A stretch of 64,000 bases of DNA, taken from Gammaproteobacteria bacterium (GTDB lineage: Bacteria > Pseudomonadota > Gammaproteobacteria > JAJDYQ01). The number at the start of each line of letters is the position of its first letter. Position 1 is the stretch's first letter. Made by a program: the position numbers and the translations under genes. The DNA is taken from positions 1,707,638 through 1,771,637 of the forward strand of contig OY759969.1 in assembly GCA_963662865.1 (NCBI GenBank), in the 5' to 3' direction. Under the pieces are notes generated by a model, which ran no database searches, was not told the DNA's origin, and saw only the letters and a list, made by a program, of their open reading frames with translations. This document shows positions 6,240 through 51,488 of the stretch, one piece after another.

Positions 6240-7508
<1,269 letters not shown>

Positions 7509-7605
7509 TCATTACCTGTATGTGAAAGCGGCTTTGAATACGGCGGCCCAAAACAGCACCCGCCGGGATGAAGGTATGGCTTAAAATCCTGACCCGGAAT
7601 TATAG

Positions 7606-8220
7606 TCACTTGCTATGAGACGATAAGCTGGAAAGCAGGCCTTCGATACCGCCCTCGCGTATCTGGCTGGCAAAACTCGCTCGATAGTTCATCACCAGAC
7701 TGATACCGCCTATGGCAACGTCATAAATGTGCCATGTTTCATCCTGCCTGAACATGCGATAGGCGACTGATATTGGCTGCCCGCCCTGCTGACGTATTTC
7801 TGTTGGTACGATAACCACGTCAGGATTCGAGGAGGTAATAGTCGGGAGATAAACGATTTCTTTGTCATTAGAGGCATATTCGGACAAGGCTGACGCATAG
7901 GTGTTAATCAGCAATCGCTTGAATCCGAACTGAAACCGGGTTTTCTGATCGCCCGTAGCGTCCTTCCAGGAATTACCCAGTATAAGGTGCGACATTCGGT
8001 CAAAATCAAAATAGGGGAGCACTCGGGCTTCCACTAATGAATAGGTTTCTTCCGAGATATCGGTACCGACCGAGGCTTCCTCGTCCAATACGACCATAAC
8101 GTCACTGATGGCCTTTTCAATAACCTGTTGCGCATCCATGGCCATAGCCGGGACAGATTGAACGATCAGCAGCAACAATAATAAAAACCCCCTGATGAGG
8201 CGTACTCCGGCTAGAAACAT
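7606..8220 (-). CDS. MlaC/Ttg2D-family periplasmic lipid-binding protein (orphan)
   Basis: Signal peptide followed by the MlaC-family block LPYFDFDRMSHLILGNSW...FKRLLINTYASAL. I chose the ATG at 8220, which follows GGAG-N7. The position upstream of murA matches the mla-murA synteny of gammaproteobacteria, but mlaFED, mlaB and ibaG are not adjacent here. Confidence 0.65.
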   Translation of the reverse strand: MFLAGVRLIRGFLLLLLLIVQSVPAMAMDAQQVIEKAISDVMVVLDEEASVGTDISEETYSLVEARVLPYFDFDRMSHLILGNSWKDATGDQKTRFQFGFKRLLINTYASALSEYASNDKEIVYLPTITSSNPDVVIVPTEIRQQGGQPISVAYRMFRQDETWHIYDVAIGGISLVMNYRASFASQIREGGIEGLLSSLSSHSK

Positions 8221-8354
8221 AAAATACTCCAAATAAATAAAGTTCAGGCTACCCGCGCCTGCACGAAGCAGGTTCAGCATAGGGCATGACTTGTTAATTT
8301 ATCATAAATGGAGATTTGTACTAAACGGTTTGTCCAGGTCCAGTACCTGTGAGA

Positions 8355-8462: not shown

Positions 8463-11400
8463 CTACCAGCGCAGCTTCCACTGTGCGCCGATGCCGTGGT
8501 TGGTTTTGCCTTCGTCGTCCCGGCGGCGCAGTGCCTTGATGTCCAGCTCCGTGTCCGGGCCGCCCGGTGCCGACAGCAGGCGCCAGCCCAGGGTCAGGTC
8601 GTGCCCGGCATCGGACGACGACAGGCCCGCATACGGGATGCCGGTGGCGCCGTCATCCAGGGCCAGGCCCCACTCGCCCTGCAGGCTCCAGCGACCGGAG
8701 GCCGGGCCGGGCTGCGATGAATCTTCCTCCAACGCGTCCGACAACAGCCGCTCCAGGCCACCCGAGGCCGGGGCGGTGCCGTATTCCTGACGTAGACTCA
8801 GCGATGGGCCATGGGCGGAACCCGGTCGCAGGTCGTAGCGCAGCGAACCGGACACGCCCCACTCACGCCGCTTGGCGGCCTCATGATCCAGCAGACGCCG
8901 GCCACGCAGGTCAATCGTTAATCCTTTGGAAGGCAACTGCCAACTGATACCGCCGCCCAGTTCCACGCCCAGGCCGTCGCTGGTATCGCCGCCGTCATAG
9001 CGCATCCCCAACTCCAGTTCCGGAATCAACCGGCCACCGTCCGCCTGCGGCAACTGCCAGGACCACTCCAGACCCATTCGGAAACGCTCCGTGTCCGCCG
9101 ACATACCCGATACACCGTCGGCATCGTCCGACTCAATACGCGCCAATGCCGCATCCGAGATCAGCGTCAGCGTCAGGCCGCCCTCTTCTAGCGGGCGCTC
9201 CAGCAGCGTGCCGCGTACACCGACCGAGGCCGAGGTCTGCTCGATGTCATGCTTCGTACTCATCGTGGCCGAAGTCTGCTCCAGGGTCTGCTCCAGTTCG
9301 CCACGGCCATAACTCGCCGCTGCCCATAACTGCAATCTCTCGGTGACGTTATGCCGGATATACGGCAGCAGCGAGGTCAGTCGGCTCGACAACTCGCCCT
9401 GTTCCGCAGCACCGCTCCAGTCGCCATCGCCGTCGCTGTACGACAGCGCCAGTCCGAGCAGCGTGCGGCCATTGTCGCGATCCACGCCCAGCATGCCGGT
9501 GGTCACATCGCCATCCACCGCGATGCCGTCCTGGCCATCCTCGTAGCGCGAGTACGACGCCTGACCCCACACCGAAACACCGTTCTCCCCGCCGCGGTGC
9601 ACAAAGCGGCTGCCGCGCAGCATATCGCGCAGCGACAGCGAACGTGACAGATTCAACATGCGGTCAATCGAACCGGCGCCCAGGTCATCACCGCCGCCAC
9701 CCTGAACGAAGCCGTCCGTTCCCAAATCCGTGCCGGTTTCATGCCGTGCACGACCAAGGGACAGGCCGCTCACATTGCCCGATAGCCCCGCTTGATCGGC
9801 CACCGAAAAGCGGTAATCCAGGCCGTCCAGCAGATGTTCTACCGCCGTCAGGCCGAAGTGCGGCAGCCAGGCCTCCTGCGCCGCCTGCATCTCCTGCATC
9901 GCCTCCGTACCGACCGGTGCCGCGTCGTCGTCGGTCACCGTGACCGTGACCGCCGCCGGGCTCAGGCCGCCTACCGGATAGTCGCCGCTGTCGCCGTTGC
10001 TGATGCGATGGCTGAGCGTCGCTGTGCGTCCACCGCCGGGGTTGTCTACGTTGTCGTCAATGCCGGTGACCGTCACCGTCTGTGCCGTGCCCCAGTTGGC
10101 TGTCGTGAACGTCAGGGTGGTCGGGCTTGCCGTGGCCGCAGCGGGCAGATCGGAGGTCACCATCAGCTCGACATCGCCGCCCGGTTGTGCGTTCAGCACC
10201 ATCGTGTAGGTGTCCATGCCTCTGGCCTCGGCGACCGTGATCCGGGTCTCGCTCAGGGTCACGCCTGCCGTCATGACGGGGGTATCGTCGTCGGTCACCG
10301 TGACCGTGACAGCCGCCGGGCTCAGGCCGCCTACCGGATAGTCGCCGCTGTCGCCGTTGCTGATGCGATGGCTGAGCATCGCTGTGCGTCCACCGCTGGA
10401 ATTGACAACGTTGTCGTTGACGCCGGTCACCGTCACCATCTGCGCCGTATTCCAGTTGACCGTCGTGAACGTCAGAGTCATCGGGGTCACGGTGGCGGCA
10501 CTTGTCGTATCGGAGGTCACCATGATCTCGACGTTGTCGGACGGTTGGGTGGCCAGCACCACCGTGTAGGTGTCCGTGCCGTTAGCCTCGGCGACCGTGA
10601 TTCGAGGCTCGCTGATGGGGATGCCCGCCATATCGTTGTCGGTGACGGTCACCGTCACAGCGCCTGTTATCGAACCATCATACTCTGTTGTGCCTGAGGC
10701 TGTATGTGTCAGGCTCACGGTGTCGTCCGTCGCATCGGCGTCGGCGTCCGCCGTCACCGTGAAGGTCTGTATCATATTCCAGTTGGTCGCCGTGAACTCC
10801 AGGCTGTCCGGATTCAGCGTCAGGTCGGTGCCGGAGTGACCGGTGACCGCCACGGTGACATTGCCCGTCGGGGTGGTGGCCAGGGACACCGGGTAGCCGA
10901 CACTGGCGCCTTCGGTGACCGCCAGGGTCGGTGGCAGTACGATGGCCGGTTGTTCCATGATCGTGAAGGCCAGGCTGCCCGTGCTACGGGTGCCGCCGTC
11001 CAGGCCGGTAGCGACCAGGGTGCCCAGGCCGATGGTGATGGTCTCGCCGGAGTCGGCGGTGTTGTCGGTCTGTACGGCCAGGGTCAGGGTGGCGGTGGCC
11101 GGGGCCGGGCCGGTAAATGTCACCGTGCCGGCGGTGCCGCTGTCCGGGATGGTGTAGGCGATGCCGTCCGCCGGGGTGCCGGTCACGGTGTAGTCCGTGC
11201 CTCGCGTTGCGGTGCCGCCCAGGGTCAGTGGCACGGCCAGGCTTTCGCCGGCGACCAGCGGGCGGTTCAGGGTGACGGTGAGGTTGCGGGTGGTGGCTTC
11301 GCTGAGATTGCCCATCGTGCCCGCCAGGGTCACTGTGGTGGCGTCGTCGTCGCTGACCTGCACCATGGCTGAGGACGGTATCCCGACGGTGTAACCGGTG

Positions 11401-12866
11401 CCGTCCGCTATGGTCACTGTGAGGGTGCCGTTAGGTTCGTCGGTGTTGTCGGCCTGTGTGTCGATGTCAACGGTGGTCGTGGTGGTGCCGCCGGTCAGGG
11501 TGGCCATGCGTGTGCCTTCGTTGCCGGCGGTCAGATAATCACTGGGGGCGGCGGCGTCCGTGACGGTCAGCCTGATCGGCAGGTTGGCCGCCGGGGCGCG
11601 GTTGGTGGTCACGGTGAAGGTCGCGGCGCTGCCTTCGGTGGTTGTGGGGCCGCTGGTGATGCGGATGGTCAGTGGGTCTTCGATGTTGAAGTTCGCCAGT
11701 GAGTCGGTACCCGTGGCACCGCCGCCCAGGCCGGTGCCGGAGTTGCTGTCCAGGGTGCCCAGGCCGATGATGACGGTCTCGCCGGCGGTCTCGTCGTTGT
11801 TGTCGGTGGTCGCGCTCAGGGTCAGGGTGGCACTGGCGGCCGATGGGCCGGTGAAGGTCACGGTGCCTGTGGCGCTGTTCAGGCCGGTGTAGGTGACGCC
11901 GTTTGCCGCGGCGCCGGTGACGGTGTAGTCCGTGCCCGGTAGCGCTGCGCCCATGAAGGTCAGTGGCACCGGCAGCGCCTCGCCTGCGGCCAGGGTGCGG
12001 CCCAGGGTGACGGTGATGGCTTTGGTGGTGCCTTCTATGATGTTGCCCGTGGCGCCCGCCAGGGTCACTGTGGTGGCGTCGTCGTCGATCACGGTCGCGG
12101 TGATGGGGTCCAGGGTGAGGTTGTAGTTGGCGTCCGTGGAGGTGGCGGCGTGGGTAATGGTGACTTCCTGGTTGGCGTCGTCGTCGTCGTTATCTTCCCC
12201 GGTGACGGTGAAGGTCTGGGCCATGTCCCAGTTGGCGCTGGTGAATACCAGGTTGTTGGGGTTGACCGTGGCGGTGGTTGGTGTGCTTGAGGTGGGTGTG
12301 ATGGTCACGTTTGCGGTGGGTTGTGTGTCCAGCACCATGCCGTATTCGTCTGTGCCGCCTTCGGTGGGTGTGGTGGCGTCCGCCGTTTCGGTGAAAGTCA
12401 CGCCTGCGGGGGCGTCGTCGTTGGTAATGGTGAAGGTGACGCTGCCGGCGGTTGTGGAGATGACGACGTCGTTGGGGGTAGGTACACCAACGATAATACG
12501 CATCGGGGTCACGGTCACTGTTTCGTCGGGTTCAATCGCCGTGTCGCCGTTTATCCTAATCTTGTACTGAACGCTGGCGAGATTGGAGGGTACACTAAGG
12601 GTAGAGATATTCGCTCTTAAATTAGAAGGCACAGCATTGTTGGTGAAGGTGTACTGGTAGTCGTTGCTGTCACCACGGGTGGCGGTGCCACCCAAGTGTA
12701 AATCAATCCCAAAAGCCTGCGCACGAGGTGGATCGATGGTCACTGTTACGGTCGCGCCGTCGATAATGCCGGAATCGCCCTCGGCGGCCATGGTGCGGTC
12801 CAGGCTGATTGATACGGTGTGGGTGTTCTGGGCGAAGGCCGGTGCCGCAAGGCCGACGAGCAGCAC
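8463..12866 (-). CDS. autotransporter-type giant surface protein, paralog 1 (Calx-beta/cadherin-like modules plus C-terminal autotransporter beta-domain); body ORF
   Basis: 1467-aa ORF. The passenger is built from beta-sandwich modules with Calx-beta-like signatures (IRINGDTAIEPDETVTV, TITNDDA) and cadherin-like ones (LTFTTxNWxTAQTVTVTG.DD). About 470 C-terminal residues (roughly 8463-9880) look like an autotransporter beta-domain: alternating amphipathic strands, VSVWGQASYSRYE, and a terminal ...QWKLRW. The N-terminus of the ORF is only the h/c part of a signal peptide (LLVGLAAPAFA|Q). The true start seems to lie upstream of the poly-C tract in another frame (see 12932-13069). Confidence 0.75.
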   Translation of the reverse strand: MLLVGLAAPAFAQNTHTVSISLDRTMAAEGDSGIIDGATVTVTIDPPRAQAFGIDLHLGGTATRGDSNDYQYTFTNNAVPSNLRANISTLSVPSNLASVQYKIRINGDTAIEPDETVTVTPMRIIVGVPTPNDVVISTTAGSVTFTITNDDAPAGVTFTETADATTPTEGGTDEYGMVLDTQPTANVTITPTSSTPTTATVNPNNLVFTSANWDMAQTFTVTGEDNDDDDANQEVTITHAATSTDANYNLTLDPITATVIDDDATTVTLAGATGNIIEGTTKAITVTLGRTLAAGEALPVPLTFMGAALPGTDYTVTGAAANGVTYTGLNSATGTVTFTGPSAASATLTLSATTDNNDETAGETVIIGLGTLDSNSGTGLGGGATGTDSLANFNIEDPLTIRITSGPTTTEGSAATFTVTTNRAPAANLPIRLTVTDAAAPSDYLTAGNEGTRMATLTGGTTTTTVDIDTQADNTDEPNGTLTVTIADGTGYTVGIPSSAMVQVSDDDATTVTLAGTMGNLSEATTRNLTVTLNRPLVAGESLAVPLTLGGTATRGTDYTVTGTPADGIAYTIPDSGTAGTVTFTGPAPATATLTLAVQTDNTADSGETITIGLGTLVATGLDGGTRSTGSLAFTIMEQPAIVLPPTLAVTEGASVGYPVSLATTPTGNVTVAVTGHSGTDLTLNPDSLEFTATNWNMIQTFTVTADADADATDDTVSLTHTASGTTEYDGSITGAVTVTVTDNDMAGIPISEPRITVAEANGTDTYTVVLATQPSDNVEIMVTSDTTSAATVTPMTLTFTTVNWNTAQMVTVTGVNDNVVNSSGGRTAMLSHRISNGDSGDYPVGGLSPAAVTVTVTDDDTPVMTAGVTLSETRITVAEARGMDTYTMVLNAQPGGDVELMVTSDLPAAATASPTTLTFTTANWGTAQTVTVTGIDDNVDNPGGGRTATLSHRISNGDSGDYPVGGLSPAAVTVTVTDDDAAPVGTEAMQEMQAAQEAWLPHFGLTAVEHLLDGLDYRFSVADQAGLSGNVSGLSLGRARHETGTDLGTDGFVQGGGGDDLGAGSIDRMLNLSRSLSLRDMLRGSRFVHRGGENGVSVWGQASYSRYEDGQDGIAVDGDVTTGMLGVDRDNGRTLLGLALSYSDGDGDWSGAAEQGELSSRLTSLLPYIRHNVTERLQLWAAASYGRGELEQTLEQTSATMSTKHDIEQTSASVGVRGTLLERPLEEGGLTLTLISDAALARIESDDADGVSGMSADTERFRMGLEWSWQLPQADGGRLIPELELGMRYDGGDTSDGLGVELGGGISWQLPSKGLTIDLRGRRLLDHEAAKRREWGVSGSLRYDLRPGSAHGPSLSLRQEYGTAPASGGLERLLSDALEEDSSQPGPASGRWSLQGEWGLALDDGATGIPYAGLSSSDAGHDLTLGWRLLSAPGGPDTELDIKALRRRDDEGKTNHGIGAQWKLRW

Positions 12867-12931
12867 GGCGGCAAGGCCGCGGCGCAGACAGAGGAGGGTA
12901 GAGGCGAACCGGCGGAATGCCGGGTGCTGCG

Positions 12932-13069
<138 letters not shown>

Positions 13070-16430: not shown

Positions 16431-17756
16431 TTACCAGCGCCAGCCCGTTTGTGACTGCCTTTGGCGTCGTTGTGACGCGGGAGGTGGCGGCTGAAAGCCC
16501 GACCGCGGCGGCTGATACGCTGGCCGGTATGATTGCCACCGGTTGTATGCCGGTGCCTGCGGGGACCACACCGAAGGAGGGTATTGTCTCGCCGCTCCAG
16601 GTGGGGGCGGGGCAGTTGCCGCGCCTGAGGGGGATGGTGGTGGTGGGAATGGGATAGGCAGATCCGACACATTCGGCGTGGCGGCCTGTGTTGATTCGAT
16701 TGCTATTGCGGTGGCCTCTGGTTCGGCAGATACCGACTGCTGGCCGGAAATGTCTGCGACATTGGCGGAATCTGTTGAGTCCGTCGCCTGCCTGCTCCCG
16801 GAGTCCGTCGTTTCTTCGCTCTCCCGTGTTGCGGAAAGGTCTTCTGTCGGCGTGGCCATACCGACAACAGGCGAATGCCCTTCAGTGGAAGGCGATTGCT
16901 CCGAGGCAGGTGCCTCAATCATGAACCTGCCTTCAAGCGCCGCGCCCTTGAACGGATATTCAACGGGCCCGAGCGACTGCTCCGAAGCAGCCTTTTCTTC
17001 TGCCTCCGGCGGTGGGGTAATCTGTGGTAATGACGAACCGGAAACTCCGTCGCCTGCCTGCCCACCGCTATCGGTGGCTTTTGTCAAATCGGCTGTGGCG
17101 GCATCATCCAGCGGCTGACGCACGTCATCGCGGCTAAAAAACGCCAGAAATATCACCAAAAACATGACGGCCAGAGCGACAAAAATAAACTCGACCCTCA
17201 TGTTGAGCAGGCTTTTCTTTGGTGGAGTAGCAGGTGCAGGGGCGTCGGTATCCGGCATAACTCCCATGTTTTGCGGTCTTTCGGATATTTTTTCCCGTTT
17301 ATCCGCTTTCTTTGCGCCGGTGGCTGACGCTGTGGCCGTAACGGCAGCAGCGTCCTGTCCCTTTGTTACGGCGGATGAGCCGCCTGGGAGCACACTGTCA
17401 GCCTTGCTTTTACGGGCCTGGCGAAGATTGGTCACACCAGAGATGAGCTCGTCAAGTTTCGCCAGAGAGTAGGCTGCATCTTTCAGGGTAACTTCATTGC
17501 TGTTTTTCGTGAAGTTCTTCTTAATCTCGTCACGAGCCTTATCGATATCGCCTGCAGAAAAAGTAGCATTTTCAGTAATATACTTGAAGTTTTTGTTCCG
17601 CCTGATATCACGGATCTTACCGGAAGTGGTGAAGTACCTCTTTGCGATCTCAGAATCCGAACCTTCTTCACGAAAACGAATATACCAAACCAGAGGATGC
17701 GGCATTTGGCCGCGGGAAATACCACCAGAGATACGAGTTGTTTTTTTCTCAGCCAT
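16431..17756 (-). CDS. hypothetical bitopic membrane protein (basic N-terminal domain, one TM helix, acidic S/T-rich then Pro-rich C-terminal tail)
   Basis: 441-aa ORF. The N-terminal roughly 110 aa are conserved-looking and globular (PLVWYIRFREEGSDSEIAKRYFTTSGKIRDIRRNKNF). TM helix FIFVALAVMFLVIFLAFF. Low-complexity tail ending PPPPASQRRQRQSQTGWRW. I recognise no family. Confidence 0.5.
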   Translation of the reverse strand: MAEKKTTRISGGISRGQMPHPLVWYIRFREEGSDSEIAKRYFTTSGKIRDIRRNKNFKYITENATFSAGDIDKARDEIKKNFTKNSNEVTLKDAAYSLAKLDELISGVTNLRQARKSKADSVLPGGSSAVTKGQDAAAVTATASATGAKKADKREKISERPQNMGVMPDTDAPAPATPPKKSLLNMRVEFIFVALAVMFLVIFLAFFSRDDVRQPLDDAATADLTKATDSGGQAGDGVSGSSLPQITPPPEAEEKAASEQSLGPVEYPFKGAALEGRFMIEAPASEQSPSTEGHSPVVGMATPTEDLSATRESEETTDSGSRQATDSTDSANVADISGQQSVSAEPEATAIAIESTQAATPNVSDLPIPFPPPPSPSGAATAPPPPGAARQYPPSVWSPQAPAYNRWQSYRPAYQPPRSGFQPPPPASQRRQRQSQTGWRW

Positions 17757-24492: not shown

Positions 24493-26385
24493 TTACACTA
24501 ACAGAGCCAACTGCAAAAAATTATCGTCACTTCTCATAATCTCTTCATGATTTTCATGCAGGTAACTAACTGATTTAAGGAAATTACGTGGCTCTCCTTT
24601 GAACAGTATCTCATCCGGGTCCTGCTTCTTCAGTTGTTCGCTGAGTTGAACCCTCAATCCGTGATCTTCCACGAGCCTCACGCTTGCCTCAATATACTCC
24701 TCTACCGTGTGTGTCACCAGCCAGTCAGGCAGACCCAGGCGCATAAACAACCCTTCGTCAATGTGTGACAACACTTCGGCACCGCTTAAGCAGATACCAG
24801 GCAATGCTTGACGCACGGTATCGACCAATCCATTTGTATTTCCAAATGGAAACGGGTTAATAAACATGTCGCACCGGTTCATGTTTTGCAGATAAACATC
24901 TCGGTTACTGTGCGGGTAAATGTATTGTCCCGGTAATATACCATTCACAAAATTTTCAATATAGACTTTACCCAAACCAATCGCATGCCCGGTCAGGAAA
25001 TGAAATTCTACCGGTTGTTTACTGCTTTCCTTTATGGCACGACAGGTTTTCAGAAAATCAGGATTCAGCTTCATCGCGGTAGCGGCAACGGCTATTTTTA
25101 TAACATCCGGCTTGCTGCGAATCTCCGGTTCAATTTTTGTAAAGTCATCATGTGGTGGCACATATGGCAAGCTATCTTTGGGCAGAGCCGCGACTTTCTC
25201 ACTAAAACATTTCGGGTCTCCGACATAATCCTCTTCCACAAGAATATAGTCGATAAATTCCGAATGTGTCGTTGCCGGGTGTCCTAATGCCGCCATCTGA
25301 ATGGGCGCCAGTCTGAAGTTAATCAGCACAACCGTCTGCAGAAACATCCCCACGCTCGGATAATAAATAATTTCCGGATTAAATCGAGCCACAAGTTCCA
25401 TAACCCGCTGCACATTTTTATACAGTCCCTGTTCATGCGGTATATCGTAAACTTCATCAAATACTTTTTTAGAGTTTTCATCCGACATTCCACTTAAAGA
25501 AACACCAATCAGATGGTATTTTTCCCGCAAGGCCCTGGCAGCGGTTGAGTGAGTCCGGTAAATGGAGTGTCCCGAGAGAAACCACTCCAGTATCACCATA
25601 ACAACCGGCTTCCCTTTAATCATATTTTTTTCTGTTCCGAATTCCCTGTCGGTCATTCCTTTGTTCATCATTTCCCTGCGAATCAGGCGATTGATACTTC
25701 GCTTGATGTCATGTTTGTTGGCAAGCATGGCGTAACTACAGTGCATCCAGACGTCATGAATATACCCCAAAGGAATATCAGACAGATCATCCAGTTCTCC
25801 CAGGCATTCAGGCAGCCAGTTCAGCAGCACTTCCTTTTTCTTGTGTGCCGCCTCGCTAATGACCGTGCGGGACGATAACAGACCAAGAAATAATGCTGCC
25901 GCAAGCTTTTTGTTAGCGTTCCATAGCATATCCGCCTGCATTGATATAAATGAATCACCGGAATACAGCATGGTGAATTTCAGCAGGTTCTTCTGGCTTA
26001 TCTCGAAATTACCCGGCTGATCAAAGCCATTTAAGTTTAATAGATGCAGAATATGGTCGGCATTAGTAAACGAACTTGCTCCGAACAGCATCGCTATCCA
26101 GCGATGCAGCAGTATGAACTGATGAAATCCGGGCACACTGACGTGAAAATCAGGATCAGAAAACAGCGCGGACATTGCAGAGGTCAATCGCGTAATGATA
26201 TGGCTATCTCGCTGCTCCTCCTGCCAGGAAGTACCTGATCGGCTGGTTCCAACCAGACCAAGCTGGCCGTAGCTTTTGTCGAGAATTCTCAGTAGTTTTA
26301 TCAGCTCTCGCGCTGCTTCTTCATGCTGGCGCTGATAACAAAGCTGCTCGAAGCGTTCCAGTGCAAATTGTTGTTCTTCCGCCAC
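24493..26385 (-). CDS. HMW1C-like cytoplasmic N-glycosyltransferase (NGT, GT41 family)
   Basis: About 630 aa with no TPRs. From my memory of Actinobacillus pleuropneumoniae NGT and Haemophilus HMW1C, long colinear blocks match: FTNADHIL, HDVWMHCSY..NKHDIKR, KPVVMVILEWF..HSIYRTHS, RLAPIQMAALGHPATTHSEFIDYILVEEDYVG, LPKDSLPYVPP, MKLNPDFL, NPFPFGNTNGLVD, HIDEGLFMRLGLPDWLV. The likely start is GTG 26385 (GGTGGA-N6). The ORF track start TTG 26421 would overlap the leuS stop. GC is visibly lower than in neighbouring genes. Confidence 0.8.
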   Translation of the reverse strand: MAEEQQFALERFEQLCYQRQHEEAARELIKLLRILDKSYGQLGLVGTSRSGTSWQEEQRDSHIITRLTSAMSALFSDPDFHVSVPGFHQFILLHRWIAMLFGASSFTNADHILHLLNLNGFDQPGNFEISQKNLLKFTMLYSGDSFISMQADMLWNANKKLAAALFLGLLSSRTVISEAAHKKKEVLLNWLPECLGELDDLSDIPLGYIHDVWMHCSYAMLANKHDIKRSINRLIRREMMNKGMTDREFGTEKNMIKGKPVVMVILEWFLSGHSIYRTHSTAARALREKYHLIGVSLSGMSDENSKKVFDEVYDIPHEQGLYKNVQRVMELVARFNPEIIYYPSVGMFLQTVVLINFRLAPIQMAALGHPATTHSEFIDYILVEEDYVGDPKCFSEKVAALPKDSLPYVPPHDDFTKIEPEIRSKPDVIKIAVAATAMKLNPDFLKTCRAIKESSKQPVEFHFLTGHAIGLGKVYIENFVNGILPGQYIYPHSNRDVYLQNMNRCDMFINPFPFGNTNGLVDTVRQALPGICLSGAEVLSHIDEGLFMRLGLPDWLVTHTVEEYIEASVRLVEDHGLRVQLSEQLKKQDPDEILFKGEPRNFLKSVSYLHENHEEIMRSDDNFLQLALLV

Positions 26386-26410
26386 TTTATATCCACCTGC
26401 CTTTTTATTG

Positions 26411-29065
26411 TTAAACCACAACGTTAACCAGCTTACCGGGCACCACTATTATTTTTCGTATCTCTACATCGTCAATAAATCGCTGTACATTTTTATTGGC
26501 CAGTGTGGCCGCCTCGATAGCTGCATTATCCGCATCGACGGCTACCGTTATCCTACCGCGAACCCGGCCCCCGACCTGCACTACCATTTCAATCGAATCT
26601 CTCACCAGCGCCGATTCATCAACTTCAGGCCATGGCGCATTCAAAATATCATCACCATAGTCCAGCTCGCGCCATAAGGTATGGGTGATGTGCGGCGCAA
26701 TCGGTCCTAATAATCTGAGAACAATACCCAGGCCCTCAGCCAGCAGCCGTTTTCCATCATCAGAACCACCGAACCGGTATAATACGTTCACGATTGACAT
26801 GCAGGCGGAGACAACCGTGTTGAACTGCTGACGTTCATAATCGAACAAAGCCTTCTTCAGATGCTCATGCACTTCCCTTCTGGCATTTTTTTGATTGTCC
26901 ACTATCCCGTTACTCACGACCAATCCTCCGATTCCAGGGTGAGCACTGGCCAGATTCCACAGGCGCTTCATAAAACGCGAAGCACCTTCCACTCCCTCAT
27001 CCGACCATTCCAGTAATTGCTCCGGTGGCGAGGTAAACATGATATAAAGGCGCACGGTATCAGCGCCATAACGATCTATCAACGTTTGAGGATTGACCCC
27101 GTTGTTCTTCGATTTGGACATTTTCTCAATGCCACCGGGGAAAACCGGCCGCCCATCAGACTTCAGCCTTGCGCTGATAACCTTTCCTTTGTTATCTCTC
27201 TCGGTTTCAATGTCAGCCGGATTAAACCACTCTTTGGAGCCATCTTCGTTTTGCCGATACCAGGTCTCGGCGACCACCATGCCCTGGGTGAGCAACCGCG
27301 TAAACGGTTCATCATTATCCACCAAACCCTCGTCTCGCATAAGCCTGTTAAAGAAGCGCGCATATAGCAGATGCAAAATGGCGTGTTCGATACCGCCTAC
27401 GTACTGGTCAACCGGCAACCAGTATTTGGCACGCTCGTCCAGCATTGACTGGTCGGCATCCGGACAGCAATAACGTGCGTAATACCAACTGGACTCAAAA
27501 AAGGTGTCAAACGTATCGGTCTCACGTTCGCGGCCATCACCAAGATCATAAAACTCTGGCATACGTTTTAATGGTGAACCGGTTCCATCGACAATAATAT
27601 CCTGCGGCAGCTTTACCGGGAGCCCGGTTGCAGGCTCAATACCTTCCGGGGTTTTAACTATCGGGATCGGACAGCCCCAGTAACGCTGACGGGAAACGCT
27701 CCAGTCGCGCAGGCGGAAGTTAATCTGCCTGCCGCCTTTGCCTCCGGCATTCAAGTGTTCGGCTACGGCGTCAAAGGCTTGGTCCGAAGTCAGCCCGCTA
27801 AACCGGGCAGATCGTCTCAAAATACCTTTTTCACTGAATCTCGTATCCCATTCGTCCCATATTAACGGGAGATCATCTTTAATTGATAATGCAGGAACCC
27901 GGCGATCTTCACTCAATTCTGCCTCTCCCGCCGCTGAGTTTATTTCTGATTCACTAATGTCTTTGCCTTCCCAGTGTGAGGGGACTATCACCGGTTTAAT
28001 AGAGAGGTTGTATTTTCTTGCAAAGTAAAAATCCCTTTCATCGTGCGCGGGAACGGCCATCACCGCACCGGTACCATAGCCCATCAGGACAAAGTTGGCG
28101 GCATAAATCGGTACAATGCCGCCCGTAATCGGATGCACGGCGTTAATATCCAGGGCGATACCCGCCTTCTCCACGGTTTCAATCTCGGCTTCCGAAACAC
28201 CGCCCTGCCGGCACCTCTCAATAAAGGCGGCAATATCCGCATTGCCTTCACCCGCCCGCAGCGCCAGAGGGTGCTCTGCGGCGACGGCCATGTAGGTCAC
28301 ACCCATCAGAGTGTCCGGACGTGTGGTAAAAACGGTAAGCTTTTCGTCAGTCTCTTCGATATTGAAATCAACCGTTACGCCTTCCGAGCGACCGATCCAG
28401 TTGCGTTGCATGGCAACAACCTGCTCCGGCCAGCCCGGTAATTTATCCAGACCATCCAGCAGCTCCTGTGCGTAATCCGTGATCTTCAAAAACCATTGCT
28501 CAATTTCACGTTTCTCAACTACCGCACCGGAACGCCAGCCACGACCGTCAATCACTTGCTCGTTCGCCAGCACCGTCCGGTCAACCGGGTCCCAGTTCAC
28601 CGCCGCCTTCTTGCGATAGGCCAGATCTTTTTTCACCAGATGGGTAAACAACCACTGCTCCCAGCGATAATAATCGGCATCACAGGTCGCCAGCTCCCTA
28701 TCCCAATCATAACTAAATCCCAGCAATTTGAGTTGGCCTTTCATGTATTCGATATTGGCGTAAGTCCACTCGGCAGGTGGTCTGGCATTTTTAAGAGCGG
28801 CATTTTCAGCCGGCAGACCAAAGGCATCCCAGCCCATGGGCTGCAGGACGTTTTTCCCCAGCATCCGCTGGTAACGGGAGATTACATCGCCGATCGTGTA
28901 GTTACGCACGTGTCCCATGTGTAACTCACCGCTGGGGTAGGGGAACATGGACAGGCAATAAAATTTTTCCTTATCCGGTTCTTCAATGACCTTGAATGAC
29001 CGATTTTTCTCCCAGTACTGCCGGGCTGCCGCCTCCAATTGCTGTGGATTGTATTTTTCTTCCAT
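26411..29065 (-). CDS. leuS: leucine--tRNA ligase
   Basis: Class I HIGH ([11 protein letters not shown]) and KMSKS motifs, about 884 aa. Start set to the ATG at 29065 ([11 protein letters not shown]). Confidence 0.95.
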
Positions 29066-29647
29066 GAAAGGGTTTGATCTGATCAAATAAGCCGCAAGAA
29101 TACAGCAGTCAGACGATTATTCGTAGCGCCGCCAGAATAAAATGCAGCCTGCATGCAGAGAATATTCAGATGTCTGTGTCAGGCAGATTTACAAAGCAAT
29201 GTAATCATCCGGGCGCCTCTCAAAGTAAATGGCTAATTGGGATAGCGTGAGATTACCTTTATATCAGGTGCAGCCAGTGCACAGATACCTTGGTTATGCC
29301 GATATAGAACAACCTGAGCAAGGCTGTCTCCATCAATCGAACCCGCTTTTGATCCTGGCCAACTTGCAGAATCAATTGCATTATTATTCAAAATAAGCTT
29401 ATGGAAATTCTGATTAAATCAGAGTTTCCTGCGCCACAAACGATGTATCGCCAAAATCAATCACGATCAGTTATTGATTTTGAAAGGAAAGCAAAAATCA
29501 CATTCTTGTTTGTCGCGCTCTGACAAGTTCAGGATAGAATTGTTCAGAGCTTCTGTATAATTGTTGTTTAGATTGATAGCTCGAAAAAGTTATATATTAT
29601 AATTATGGTAAAGATTAATTATTATCTGCAATCAAAAGGAGAGTAAG

Positions 29648-29962
29648 ATGTCAGGAAGTTATCCAGACAAAATAAAAGAACTGCCACTATATGATGGGCG
29701 CTTTGATGCCTACAGATTAGAAGCAAAAGATAGTGATGTTCTTTTTGCTTCATATCCGGCTGGAACCTCAATTCCATCACATGTTCATGATACTGATAAT
29801 CACGGCGTCATCACCAAAGGCGAGCTGATTCTCACCATGAATGGCAACACTCAAAGGATTGGTATCGGTCAGTGGTATCATGTTCCTGCGAATGTTGAGC
29901 ATTCTGCATTATTTGAAATTGAAACGGATGAAATTGAATTCTGGTTCAGAAAAAACACATAA
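29648..29962 (+). CDS. small cupin-domain protein
   Basis: 104 aa with a strong SD (AAAGGAGAG-N5-ATG) and cupin His/Glu motifs (SHVHDTDNHGVITKGEL, YHVPANVEHSA). AT-rich gene in an AT-rich islet. Confidence 0.6.
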   Translation: MSGSYPDKIKELPLYDGRFDAYRLEAKDSDVLFASYPAGTSIPSHVHDTDNHGVITKGELILTMNGNTQRIGIGQWYHVPANVEHSALFEIETDEIEFWFRKNT

Positions 29963-30043
29963 ACAAGCCAGGCAAGCAGGTGGCGTTCCGCCGCCGCTGA
30001 GTTCAAGCGTTAGCTTTCACAAAAAATAGTTAGTTTGTGGAGA

Positions 30044-30434
30044 ATGAAGAAGTTAATTTTAATCTGCTTGATCGGCTTTGGAATTTATGGACATTTCCAG
30101 AAGAATCCGAAAACAACCCAGATTGCCCAGTCAACGTTCAGTATCGAATATTCAGCCAGTGACGAAACACTTGAGCGAGCGTATCAAAACAGACAGAGTA
30201 ATCTGCAAATTGGCGATTCAGGTAAGATTATAAAAATTCCACCTGATGACTTAAAAGGTAGTCGCCTTAAGCATCGAAGATCAGGTACAGTTCTATGGCG
30301 AGTACAAATGGAACCCAAAAGATGGGAGCATGCACTGGACACATCATGATCCAAAAGGTCGCCGCGAAGATGGTTGATTAGTTCATGATGGCAGTATCTA
30401 TAAATACCGGCGTGAACGGATAGAGCTTCCTTAA
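30044..30434 (+). pseudogene. decayed DUF3465-family gene (internal deletion/frameshift plus TGG->TGA)
   Basis: Frame 1 reads signal peptide ...AYQNRQSNLQIGDSGKIIKIPPDDLKGSR. A second frame from about 30291 reads FYGEYKWNPKDGSMHWTHHDPKGRREDG-TGA-LVHDGSIYKY. From memory, intact DUF3465 proteins read ...LLPDD.KGSRHQ.F...(about 35 aa)...EFYGEYEWN.KGG.IHWTHHDP.G...GWL.H.G. So the middle is missing, the frame changes, and the conserved W is a stop. Confidence 0.5.
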
Positions 30435-36285: not shown

Positions 36286-36828
36286 TTGGCTGCGAGTCAG
36301 TTTGTTCCGAAATCAGAACTGGTTAATCAGCTTCGCCATATTATGAACGCTGGCAAAACCGGCTATCTCTCTATTGTGACCGATACGAGCCGGGCGGCGT
36401 TGTTGCGGTTCCAGCAAGGGAAACTGGTGCAATCCAATGTACGCTCGAAGAATGTCTCAGATGCGATTCAGGTGATCAATCAATGCCGGCAGGTGAAATT
36501 TACTTATGCGGATGCTCCTGTGGATGGCCACTCCGACATCATGCCGATGGACACGTTTCTTCAGTTGATACTCCTGGAGGACGACAGTCAGGTTCCATCT
36601 TCCAAGGAGGAGACTGCTGAAACTGAAATAGCGTACTCCGAGGCCCGCGTGTTGAAAGACATGGCCGCTAATTATTTAGGCCCGATAGCAGACTTCATCG
36701 TGGAAGAAGCACTGGCAAACAACGAAAACATGCTACAAGCTGTGCAAAGTATCACCAAATCCATTCCCGACCCGAATCAGGCCGGTCAGTTCAAATCGGA
36801 GGTGCTGGCAATTTTGCGCGACATTTAA
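36286..36828 (+). CDS. hypothetical protein, DUF4388(PATAN)-like N-terminus
   Basis: 180 aa. GKTGYLSIVTDTSRAALLRFQQGKLVQ resembles the DUF4388 core, and the C-terminal YLGPIADFIVEEAL block is also seen in such proteins. TTG start as given; the real start is uncertain. Confidence 0.4.
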   Translation: MAASQFVPKSELVNQLRHIMNAGKTGYLSIVTDTSRAALLRFQQGKLVQSNVRSKNVSDAIQVINQCRQVKFTYADAPVDGHSDIMPMDTFLQLILLEDDSQVPSSKEETAETEIAYSEARVLKDMAANYLGPIADFIVEEALANNENMLQAVQSITKSIPDPNQAGQFKSEVLAILRDI

Positions 36829-36906: not shown

Positions 36907-37072
36907 CACCTGCAGGATTTATTGATCTGGATTAAGTCACTTGAAAATCAGCCTCATGCCACGTGGAAAACCGCTTTGCTTGTTGTATGATGAAGATCGC
37001 AGGAAGGCACAGGCTTCAAGATCAATGCTTCCTGTCCCCTGTAATAACACAATGCATTTTCGGAGAATTAAA

Positions 37073-37678
37073 ATGACTTTGAAGAAAACTTTGGCCCTGT
37101 TGGCTGTCACGGGTGCGACTGTAATGATGGGATCATCTATTCAGGCCCAGCCCTGGAGCGGTTCTGGCTATGGTGGTGATAATTTTGGTACTTCCGGTTG
37201 GGGCGATGGGCGCAGTTCCGGCCGTGGTAACGCTTCCGGTGAAGGAGATTTCAATATGAATTTCTCTGGTCGTGGTCAGGGTAATATGGACGGCGACAGT
37301 AACTGGCAGGGTTCCGGTTATGGTTCCGGCAACAACCAGGGCGGCTACTATGGTGGTGGCCCATACGGTTATGGCCCCCGTGGTTACGGTACGCCCCCCG
37401 GTTACGGTACGCCCCCCGGTTACGGTGCGCCCCCCGGTTACGGTACGCCTCCCGGTTACGGTACGCCTCCCGGTTACGGTGCGCCCCCCGGTTACGGTAC
37501 GCCTCCCGGTTACGGTGCGCCCCCCGGTTACGGTACACCCCCCGGCTATGGTGCGCCTTACGGTGGTTACGGTGCCCCCTATGGTTACGGTGCTCCAGGG
37601 ATGATGCCGCAGATGCCTATGCCGCCGCGTCCCGCGCCTCTGGCACCACAACAACAGGTTCCGGCACAGAATAATTAG
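37073..37678 (+). CDS. secreted Gly/Tyr/Pro-rich tandem-repeat protein (sulfur-globule-protein-like composition)
   Basis: GGAG-N7-ATG at 37073 and a Sec signal peptide ([25 protein letters not shown]|QP). The mature part is G/Y/S/N/W-rich, with about 10 PPGYG(T/A) hexapeptides followed by a [12 protein letters not shown] and Pro/Gln tail. Confidence 0.7.
37382..37561. repeat. 18-bp tandem repeat (about 10 copies), in-frame coding for GYG(T/A)PP
   Basis: GGTTACGGT(A/G)CGCC(C/T)CCC is repeated head to tail, with only the A/G and C/T positions varying. Confidence 0.9.
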
Positions 37679-38553: not shown

Positions 38554-39075
38554 TTATTGGCGGATTGTCAGCGTATCACCGCGTTGTATCAATTCCAGCC
38601 GCTTCAGAAAAGACATACCAAGCAGGATTTCATCCGTGTTCATATGGGGATTTATCTGGGCGGCTATATCATACAATTCGATATTGCCAATACCGATGGA
38701 GGCAAGCCGGGTGTTATAGGTTTCAATAACTCCATTTGCGGTATTGGCGTATGAGCGCGTCCCCGCTTTTAATGACAGACGCCGGGCAATATTCTCCGGG
38801 ATGGAAACCAGAGTGGCACCGGTATCAAGGAGGAATGTCACAGATTGGTCATTAATCCTGCCCCGGGCCAGATAATGTCCCTGCTTATTGCGCTTAAGCC
38901 TGATTTCACGCAACCCCTGATCAGATATACTGGATTGAATGTTTTGATTGGGATTCCACTGCTTATCCAGAATATCGCTGAAAAGAAGACTGAGCAGACC
39001 GACTGCAATTATCCAGGCGACAATGATCATATGTCGTCCCATACTCTTTTGAGATTGATCCTCTGATTTCGGCAT
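38554..39075 (-). CDS. membrane-anchored retropepsin-like aspartic protease (TIGR02281-type)
   Basis: Start set to ATG 39075 (MPKSEDQ...), one TM helix, and the FLLDTGATLVSIP active-site DTG. 173 aa. The 64-codon N-extension in the ORF track overlaps the divergent gene. Confidence 0.65.
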   Translation of the reverse strand: MPKSEDQSQKSMGRHMIIVAWIIAVGLLSLLFSDILDKQWNPNQNIQSSISDQGLREIRLKRNKQGHYLARGRINDQSVTFLLDTGATLVSIPENIARRLSLKAGTRSYANTANGVIETYNTRLASIGIGNIELYDIAAQINPHMNTDEILLGMSFLKRLELIQRGDTLTIRQ

Positions 39076-39090
39076 TACCTTCTCCCGACA

Positions 39091-39723
39091 ATGAAAAAAC
39101 CCGTAGAAGAAAAAATACTTATCCCCGGTTCCGCTGGAGAACTGGAGGCCCTGTTGAGCGTAGTCGATGACTATGGTGACAGTATCGGTATCATCTGTCA
39201 CCCACATCCGCTGTACGGTGGCAGCATGAACAACAAGGTGGTTCACTATACCGCCCGCGCACTGCACAAAGTCGGGATGCCTGTGCTGCGTTTCAACTTC
39301 AGGGGAGTTGGGCGCAGCGGAGGCGAGTTCAGCAATGCCATTGGAGAAGCTGACGATCTCAAGGCGGTTGCCGAGTGGTTACGACAAAAATACCCTGCCC
39401 GAAGCCTTATAGTAGCGGGCTTTTCATTCGGTTCCTATGTGGCGGTAAGTCAGGTACGGGCATTGGCCGCAACAAAGCTCATATCCATTGCCCCGCCGGT
39501 GAATCTATATAATTTTCATGAACTGGCACCGCAAATTCCCTGGTTGGTAATCATGGGCGATGAAGATGAAGTTGTACCGGTGTCTGAAGTCCGGCAATGG
39601 CTGGAAAATAAAGCCTCAAACCGCCAGGTGGTGTGGATGAAGGGAGCAAGCCACTTTTTTCACGGCCGCCTGCCGGAATTATCCGGCCACATCGAGAATT
39701 GGCTGACCACTAACACAGATTAA
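39091..39723 (+). CDS. alpha/beta-fold hydrolase
   Basis: 210 aa with the nucleophile elbow GFSFGS, and a late D (GDEDEVV) and H (ASHFFHG) consistent with a Ser-Asp-His triad. Confidence 0.65.
   Translation: MKKPVEEKILIPGSAGELEALLSVVDDYGDSIGIICHPHPLYGGSMNNKVVHYTARALHKVGMPVLRFNFRGVGRSGGEFSNAIGEADDLKAVAEWLRQKYPARSLIVAGFSFGSYVAVSQVRALAATKLISIAPPVNLYNFHELAPQIPWLVIMGDEDEVVPVSEVRQWLENKASNRQVVWMKGASHFFHGRLPELSGHIENWLTTNTD

Positions 39724-40694: not shown

Positions 40695-51488
<10,794 letters not shown>

Follow-up and report, generated by a model that had tools for sequence, protein, structure and literature searches.

To our knowledge, N-glycosyltransferases (NGTs) of the HMW1C type are the only known soluble enzymes that form N-glycosidic bonds on proteins, and all the characterised ones that we know of were obtained from a small number of pathogens and commensals. 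As tools for glycoengineering they are in demand. Here, we describe a member of this family encoded in an uncultured gammaproteobacterium (assembly GCA_963662865.1, contig OY759969.1, positions 1,707,638 to 1,771,637; this whole 64,000-nt stretch is called the window below). The open reading frame (ORF) at 24493-26385, on the minus strand and directly behind the leucyl-tRNA synthetase gene leuS, is a real and well-conserved member of the HMW1C/NGT family (CAZy GT41). The best overall explanation, to which we give a probability of roughly 0.8, is that it encodes a functional soluble cytoplasmic HMW1C/NGT-type N-glycosyltransferase, with type V surface proteins as acceptors, whose gene was acquired by an ancestor of the organism. 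This is no new mechanism or system: the family was known before, and so were its stand-alone arrangement and its link to autotransporters.

Among the described enzymes, ApNGT of Actinobacillus pleuropneumoniae (PDB 3q3e, 3q3h, 3q3i and 8j30) is, like the window NGT, a stand-alone enzyme that is not linked to a two-partner secretion (TPS) adhesin. Both proteins have the same length, the same architecture of AAD domain and GT-B fold (template modelling (TM) scores of 0.88-0.93) and the same residues for sequon reading and uridine diphosphate (UDP) binding. By contrast, they are only 39-40% identical, belong to different clades, and differ in that ApNGT has Gln469 and a DVYM motif where the window NGT has His467 and DVWM; their hosts are, respectively, a Pasteurellaceae pathogen and an uncultured sulfur oxidiser. 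The ApNGT gene presumably adjoins an alpha-1,6-glucosyltransferase gene (agt) in what we take to be an operon beginning with rimO, whereas the window NGT has leuS as its upstream gene and no partner glycosyltransferase. The known natural substrates of ApNGT are autotransporter adhesins (PMC8151025). AaNGT, from Aggregatibacter aphrophilus (8p0o, 8p0p and 8p0q), is 38-40% identical to the window NGT and shares 19 of 21 functional residues with it; according to the citation of reference 71 in PMC8151025, it is a stand-alone enzyme that acts on an autotransporter adhesin. For the enzymes of Kingella and Aggregatibacter, trimeric autotransporters have been reported as substrates (PMC8151025), whereas the candidates in the window are classical autotransporters with repeats weakly like Calx-beta.

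A second arrangement is that of HMW1C and HMW2C of Haemophilus influenzae, EtpC of enterotoxigenic Escherichia coli and the TpsB-TpsA-NGT loci of Yersinia, Pseudomonas and Polaromonas. These enzymes belong to the same family as the window NGT and the same chemistry would be expected of them, but genes of the HMW1C/EtpC type are co-located and co-transcribed with a TpsA substrate and a TpsB transporter (PMC8151025), and the clade of the window NGT is not TPS-linked. More distantly, O-GlcNAc transferases (OGTs) and SPINDLY (SPY) share the GT41 classification and the GT-B fold with the window NGT, and the alpha-phosphate is the suggested base in both OGT-type enzymes and NGT (PMC10507012). They have, however, a tetratricopeptide repeat (TPR) superhelix and O-linked products, while the window NGT has an all-alpha AAD domain.

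The gene, its surroundings and the functional sites of its product are arranged as follows.

26411..29065, minus strand: leuS, leucyl-tRNA synthetase, 884 aa (Pfam tRNA-synt_1, tRNA-synt_1_2 and Anticodon_1; identical to an 884-aa public gene call), directly upstream of the NGT gene; TAA stop codon at 26411-26413.
26386..26410, minus strand: leuS-NGT spacer, 25 nt, with a Shine-Dalgarno-like AGGTGGA motif at 26392-26398 and no terminator.
24493..26385, minus strand: NGT coding sequence, 630 aa, with Pfam and PDB matches; GTG start at 26385, TAA stop at 24493-24495.
25672..26367, minus strand: N-terminal region of the NGT, with Pfam matches and all-helical in the model.
25867-25869, minus strand: Arg173, the partner of the DV(Y/W)M site by residue mapping.
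25744..25758, minus strand: H210-D211-V212-W213-M214, counterpart of His214 and the DVYM motif of ApNGT/AaNGT, which recognise the sequon's +2 Ser/Thr.
24496..25611, minus strand: GT-B (GT41) catalytic domain by residue mapping, model and Foldseek, with the UDP/donor residues H273, S274, R277, G368, H369, T436, K439, H492, Y498, T517, N518, G519 and D522.
24985..24987, minus strand: His467, in the acceptor-site wall, at the position of ApNGT Gln469 and AaNGT Gln468.

Three Pfam families match the protein above their gathering scores, namely HMW1C_N (E 5e-24, 85.3 bits, cut-off 27), HMw1_D2 (E 2e-22, 79.9 bits, cut-off 26.2) and GT41 (E 3e-6, 26.2 bits, cut-off 25), and no TPR family was matched in the same Pfam search. 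With phmmer against the PDB, AaNGT (8p0o, 8p0q) and ApNGT (3q3e, 8j30) match over the full length (residues 21-616) at E ~1e-152, AaNGT being the best sequence match (E 2.9e-152). The NCBIfam NGTferase model NF049992 ("UDP-glucose:protein N-beta-glucosyltransferase") gives 639.3 bits (E 6.6e-192) over its positions 3-602 of 614. All the motifs that the initial annotation had quoted as typical of the family are found in the protein (RLAPIQ...ALGHPATTHSEFIDYILVEEDYVG, LPKDSLPYVP, NPFPFGNTNG and HIDEGLFMRLGLPDWL).

The structural comparison leads to the same family. An AlphaFold2 model built from a 20-sequence alignment (mean pLDDT 90.8, pTM 0.89) is all helical up to approximately residue 245 and continues with two Rossmann-like halves. 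ApNGT and AaNGT have this three-part fold too, and the entire chain models as a globular NGT. The protein begins MAEEQQFALERFEQL and has no hydrophobic N-terminal stretch, as read from the sequence. When the model was compared with the PDB using Foldseek, the ten best matches were all NGT structures (8j30, 8p0o, 8p0q, 3q3e, 3q3h and 3q3i among them), with TM scores of 0.88-0.93 and 38-40% identity over 611-631 columns. The initial annotation had identified the product as an HMW1C-like NGT with an all-alpha N-domain in place of TPRs, and the family models, the full-length PDB matches, the TM scores and the helical N-terminal region all agree with it. It had also asked whether a TPR-type GT41 enzyme would be the best match, but OGT, SPY and XcOGT reach a TM score of only ~0.5 at 11-15% identity. 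It is therefore close to inconceivable that the protein is a conventional TPR-type O-glycosyltransferase of the O-GlcNAc transferase or SPINDLY kind: the weak Pfam GT41 match and the weak PDB sequence matches to OGT and SPY (E 1e-5 to 0.6), which might be taken to favour it, are due to the common catalytic fold, while TPRs find no match and the N-domain belongs to HMW1C_N and HMw1_D2.

The functional residues of AaNGT and ApNGT have been described in some detail. Arg177, His214, Asp215 and the DVYM motif read the sequon by recognising the +2 Ser/Thr, with Arg177 and Asp215 being essential by mutagenesis, and Tyr222 and His370/371 have been proposed to flank the acceptor Asn; the donor site comprises His276, Ser277, Arg280, Thr437, Lys440, His494, Tyr500, Thr519, Asn520, Gly521 and Asp524, and contacts with UDP or glucose involve His276, Ser277, His370, Lys440, Asn520 and Asp524 (PMC10507012, PMC10466321). 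Additionally, mutation of Gln469 changes the activity of ApNGT (PMC10507012). We mapped the published residues onto the window NGT through a HMMER alignment, with AaNGT as reference, and 19 of the 21 are identical, including R173, H210, D211, M214, Y218 and all the donor residues of the catalytic domain given above; most of the mapped residues are invariant across the 20-sequence alignment. The twelve UDP-sugar residues (the donor-site residues just named plus His370) are all the same as in AaNGT, and the Arg177/Asp215 dyad and the DVYM motif are kept with a single conservative change from Tyr to Trp. The two positions that differ from AaNGT are this one (Tyr217, here Trp213) and Gln468/469, which is His467 in the window NGT and is the only non-conservative replacement. 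At the latter position, P0006 and the four closest homologues also have His, while the other members of the family, TPS-linked ones included, vary there.

As for the gene itself, the ORF is uninterrupted on the minus strand from 24493 to 26421 and would code for 642 aa if read from TTG 26421. We dropped this start in favour of GTG 26385 because a GTG stands at the corresponding position of the sister locus L001, behind a spacer of 20 nt, because the public gene call for the protein is 630 aa long and because the first 20 residues of the 642-aa version lie outside its similarity to the solved NGTs. With this start, the NGT gene follows the leuS stop codon after 25 nt, as had been annotated. Beyond the NGT stop codon there are 199 nt of intergenic sequence and then a convergent gene of the creatininase family.

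The window carries genes for cytochrome bc1, cytochrome oxidase assembly proteins, a sulfur globule protein and housekeeping functions. Its LeuS shares 81-83% identity with those of three uncultured "Gammaproteobacteria bacterium" genomes, 75% with the next group and 68-69% with those of Thioflavicoccus, Thiorhodococcus, Thiococcus and the scaly-snail endosymbiont, which makes the host an uncultured Chromatiales-like sulfur oxidiser. Around leuS, the genes are ordered as follows.

L087 (nearest outgroup): corC-lnt-leuS-lptE-holA.
L001: lnt-leuS-NGT.
L086: lysS-leuS-NGT-acs.
Window: low-GC cupin/DUF3465 region, then leuS-NGT, then the convergent creatininase-family gene.
L085/L005 (OZ243932.1): lnt-leuS-metH, with the NGT gene ~26 kb off, between an integrase fragment and a gene of glycosyltransferase family 2 (GT2).

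Each of the four clade genomes thus has the NGT gene, which adjoins leuS in three of them (the window, L001 and L086), where it takes the usual place of lptE-holA, in agreement with the initial annotation and with the lnt-leuS-lptE-holA order of the nearest outgroup. In these three genomes the junction has been kept although the outer flanks differ, and the spacer of 25 nt in the window is 18-20 nt in L001 and L086. A terminator scan found no terminator-like site in the window spacer; as the promoter and terminator scans gave no more matches than shuffled sequence, this lack of a terminator is their only informative result. Given the spacers of 18-25 nt, the missing terminator and a junction maintained through rearrangements, the NGT gene is probably co-transcribed with leuS.

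Directly upstream of leuS in the window there is a low-GC islet (29100-30400, 36-42% GC) whose DUF3465 gene (30035-30349) and small cupin gene (29648-29962) are the two lowest-GC ORFs of the window. The relatives have lnt-leuS here, so this flank may be an insertion or the breakpoint of a rearrangement.

The base composition of the NGT gene had been taken as a sign of acquisition, with 37-43% GC estimated against about 50% in leuS. The dip is real, but its size was overestimated: the gene has 45.6% GC (49% at third codon positions, GC3), compared with 51.5% in leuS and 52.3 +/- 4.4% in the 49 window ORFs, among which it is the third lowest (about -1.5 standard deviations). The deficit with respect to its neighbours is 6-7 points, and a comparable dip is present in L001. 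In the wider family, over 79 loci, the GC content of the NGT gene tracks that of its flanks (mean difference -0.002), so that it generally behaves as a resident gene. Nonsynonymous and synonymous divergence (dN and dS) of the window genes from their sisters, within the four clade genomes, was as follows.

NGT against sister genomes, with four sister genes: dN/dS 0.06-0.08, dS 0.87-1.11.
leuS against sister genomes: dN/dS 0.10-0.14, dS 0.65-1.09.

Purifying selection on the NGT gene is at least as strong as on leuS, and the similar dS of both genes indicates vertical inheritance within the clade, with divergence in step with the genomes. These values bear on the idea that the NGT gene is a recently acquired, possibly decaying foreign gene without a role. 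The GC deficit, the mobile elements beside the NGT gene in two sister genomes (the integrase fragment mentioned above and, in L006, a TnpB transposase gene after the NGT gene) and the lack of NGT at this position in the nearest outgroup would fit with it. However, the ORF is intact, its dN/dS is below that of leuS, its dS of ~0.9-1.1 matches that of leuS, and the gene is found in every genome of the clade, with the same GC dip in L001; recent transfer or decay was consequently ruled out on dS and dN/dS, and we consider this explanation highly improbable. Acquisition by the ancestor of the clade is plausible, since the outgroup lacks NGT at leuS, the GC deficit is modest and shared with L001, and mobile elements neighbour the gene in two sister genomes. 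The acquisition proposed in the initial annotation thus holds as an old event but not as a recent one.

The family is also far wider than the Pasteurellaceae and few host-associated bacteria to which it had been thought mostly restricted, a claim that has to be abandoned, as relatives occur in at least 548 species-representative genomes. At E <= 1e-10, the NGT has matches in more than 1600 database clusters, and the 548 stretches of species-representative genomes that encode a relative include those of Herbaspirillum, Polaromonas, Pseudomonas, Yersinia, Dyella and Burkholderia. Members from Yersinia, Pseudomonas and Polaromonas are 44-49% identical to the window NGT, and in such distant relatives the NGT gene typically stands behind a TpsB-TpsA pair, in the classical HMW1-type arrangement. 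A gene with a TPS domain was found within 10 kb of the NGT gene in at least 32 of 82 related loci, and in none of the window's clade, none of whose members is TPS-linked.

In a neighbour-joining tree, the window NGT clusters with five metagenomic sequences (L001, L005 and L006, 86-87% identical to it; L002, 63%; L004, 57%), and this clade is placed outside the branch with the enzymes of Yersinia, Pasteurellaceae, Pseudomonas and Herbaspirillum. A further sister, P0002 on contig L086, which was outside the sequence set of the tree, is 88% identical. The window NGT is a new member of an enzyme family that is known and widespread, and belongs there to a separate stand-alone subfamily. Earlier work has already described stand-alone NGTs acting on classical or trimeric autotransporters with genes elsewhere in the genome (PMC8151025), and a literature search on NGTs in sulfur-oxidising symbionts returned nothing relevant. 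In the wider family, one uncultured gammaproteobacterial contig (L030) carries two divergently oriented NGT paralogues (6427-8295, minus strand, and 10001-11869, plus strand), ~1.7 kb apart and 39% and 46% identical to the window protein.

The initial annotation had noted that no substrate gene is adjacent to the NGT gene. This is true of adjacency, but the window nonetheless contains two candidates.

40695..51488, minus strand: candidate substrate 1, a 3597-aa autotransporter-like surface protein with 25 N-X-S/T sequons.
51391..51428, minus strand: 38-nt poly-C tract in the 5' coding region of the 3597-aa gene, encoding poly-Pro; the gene is in frame.
8463..12866, minus strand (8463..13069 with an out-of-frame leader starting at ATG 13069): candidate substrate 2, a 1467-aa autotransporter with 12 sequons.
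12969..13018, minus strand: 50-nt poly-C tract, flanked by the leader ATG 13069 and the region for the signal peptide of the 1467-aa gene.

The 1467-aa protein matches the Pfam Autotransporter beta-domain (E 1.2e-13, 51.8 bits, cut-off 26). The C-terminus of the 3597-aa protein has no Pfam Autotransporter match; its last ~820 aa are 75% identical to the shorter paralogue, beta-domain included, and it must therefore end in the same domain. The two genes lie 12 and 14 kb from the NGT gene and together contain 37 sequons, and more members of the autotransporter family are encoded elsewhere in the same genome. We regard it as possible, at somewhat less than even odds, that these autotransporters are substrates of the NGT, by analogy with the described stand-alone enzymes.

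Both paralogues are compositional outliers, with 64-65% GC and a GC3 of ~0.8 against ~52% GC in the other ORFs, and are very rich in Thr, Gly, Ala and Asp, with almost no Lys. Their passenger repeats are hardly recognised by Pfam, which gives only sub-threshold matches to Calx-beta, fn3_6 and DUF5395.

The long poly-C tracts of these genes are a more unusual observation than the NGT itself. In both genes the tract follows a conserved leader peptide (..KRAT..HNL[IM]) and precedes the signal peptide; the tract of 50 nt puts the leader of the 1467-aa gene into another frame than its body. The two tracts are the only homopolymers of at least 12 nt in the window and, together with the L088 tracts given next, the sole G or C runs of at least 12 nt in any of the 88 loci. 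In an independent assembly (L088, 6735-6805), the same leader is followed by 39 and 31 C residues, in frame. The tracts look like sites of slipped-strand phase variation of the candidate substrates, while the exact frame at each of them may reflect homopolymer length errors of long-read assemblies.

Several points weigh against the overall explanation that we favour, and they concern the enzyme, its expression and its acceptors. The protein is at most ~40% identical to any characterised NGT and sits in a clade separate from the characterised enzymes. Its 639.3 bits do not reach the equivalog cut-off of NF049992 (1000 bits), which makes it a clear homologue, yet one outside the equivalog set, so that identical donor and acceptor specificity is not guaranteed. 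The His at the Gln469 position suggests that its donor or acceptor preferences may differ. Promoter-like matches occur at chance frequency, and the case for co-transcription with leuS is thus one of spacing only. The autotransporter genes are not adjacent to the NGT gene, and they show no excess of sequons (12 against 13.1 expected, z -0.3, in the shorter one and 25 against 32.1 expected, z -1.5, in the longer one). Finally, a search for autotransporter homologues did not establish that they co-occur with NGT in the sister genomes, as far as its best 120 matches are concerned; these include the window's own genome and an unrelated contig but not the sister chromosome.

The points on the enzyme raise the question of whether this is a family member with changed chemistry, using another nucleotide-sugar donor or an acceptor motif other than N-X-S/T. 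The missed cut-off, the separate clade and low identity, the replacement of a residue whose mutation alters ApNGT activity and the Trp for Tyr in the DVYM motif would all agree with this, but the sequon-reading Arg177 and Asp215 and the contacts with UDP and glucose (His276, Ser277, His370, Lys440, Asn520 and Asp524) are identical, and the Gln469 position varies even among TPS-linked members. On balance, we think changed chemistry unlikely.

With respect to the acceptors, the lack of sequon enrichment (the reverse motif is, if anything, commoner than the sequon in the two autotransporters) means that the link to these substrates derives from precedent and proximity only. It can be imagined that an active NGT modifies proteins encoded outside the 64 kb, such as a TPS adhesin, a trimeric autotransporter or a general set of cytoplasmic or periplasmic proteins. 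In addition to the missing enrichment, it would speak for this that the NGT of most distant relatives is linked to TpsA/TpsB and not to classical autotransporters, that modification of proteins unrelated to type V secretion is on record (PMC8151025), and that leuS-coupled, presumably constitutive expression suits a general role. By contrast, there is no TPS gene in the window or in the close-clade loci, and autotransporters are the documented substrates of stand-alone NGTs (PMC8151025). Moreover, the other 47 window proteins show no significant sequon depletion (49 against 55.6 expected, z -0.96, p 0.18), and so give no sign of selection against off-target modification, in what is a test of low power. 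Acceptors outside the window are a possibility, but a doubtful one.

For the same reason (p 0.18), sequon depletion was rejected as the footprint of a promiscuous NGT. The absence of sequons in the NGT itself (0 against 2.9 expected) is not meaningful either, given that 20 homologues are just as poor in the reverse motif.

The favoured explanation, a functional NGT acting on type V surface proteins, can be put together as a sequence of steps. After entering the ancestor of a small clade of Chromatiales-like sulfur oxidisers, the gene would have taken the lptE-holA place behind leuS and then been inherited vertically. Transcribed with leuS, or from within its end, it would be expressed constitutively. 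By analogy with the characterised enzymes, the product would use a UDP-hexose, most likely UDP-glucose, and would transfer single hexoses, with inversion, to the Asn of N-X-S/T sequons, the alpha-phosphate of UDP serving as the base. The transfer would take place on proteins still in the cytoplasm and would require neither metal nor lipid carrier. The natural acceptors would be large surface proteins that are secreted by the type V route and have their genes elsewhere in the genome, with the giant autotransporters as the best candidates in view of the genomic context, and their decoration in this organism would be mono-hexose.

This last step depends on the lack of partner genes. As the initial annotation had stated for agt, there is no second glycosyltransferase in the 64-kb window, and none that could elongate the product directly downstream of the NGT gene as in an ngt-agt-type operon; mono-hexose modification is therefore expected. 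Similarly, neither the window nor the close-clade loci encode a TPS or ShlB/POTRA protein, so the window locus is not of the HMW1ABC type, in which the NGT stands beside a TpsA adhesin and a TpsB transporter. A GT2 gene adjoins the NGT gene in L002 (11903-12649, 4 nt downstream) and L005 (11932-12609, ~40 nt downstream), and another stands beside it in L019 and L043. The L002 and L005 proteins, which are 24% identical to each other, could be functional analogues of the elongating glucosyltransferase that partners ApNGT. A tblastn search of the window with these two genes gave no match and no remnant.

We have thus a well-conserved stand-alone NGT subfamily in uncultured sulfur oxidisers, tied to a housekeeping gene and sharing a genome with surface proteins that are very large and look switchable. 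If active, the enzyme would widen the ecological scope of cytoplasmic N-glycosylation and provide a new variant for specificity studies, and its altered acceptor pocket, with His at the Gln469 position, might be useful for glycoengineering. One could go further and picture an environmentally distributed stand-alone NGT subfamily in the leuS operon that N-glucosylates phase-variable giant autotransporters in a possibly host-associated lineage; this combination is tentative, and the odds are against it. If it were true, N-glycosylation of adhesins in the cytoplasm would be a general tool of environmental and symbiotic bacteria and not a speciality of pathogens.

Regarding host association, the window encodes a 633-aa ankyrin-repeat protein with weak TPR matches, a eukaryote-like repeat type (62096-63997, minus strand, with the ORF start 3 nt from the end of the window). 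Some distant homologues of the autotransporters carry the name "Gammaproteobacteria bacterium AqS3", which we take to be a sponge symbiont, and both observations hint that the organism may be host-associated.

Elsewhere in the window, Pfam gives no match at E <= 1e-4 for the sizeable ORFs at 16431-17756 (minus strand, 441 aa) and 36286-36828 (plus strand, 180 aa). The interval from the cytochrome oxidase assembly genes to the giant autotransporter contains two further genes.

36941-37678: sulfur globule protein homologue (SGP), with 3 sequons against 1.2 expected.
38554-39267: retropepsin-like aspartyl protease (gag-asp_proteas, E 7e-25).

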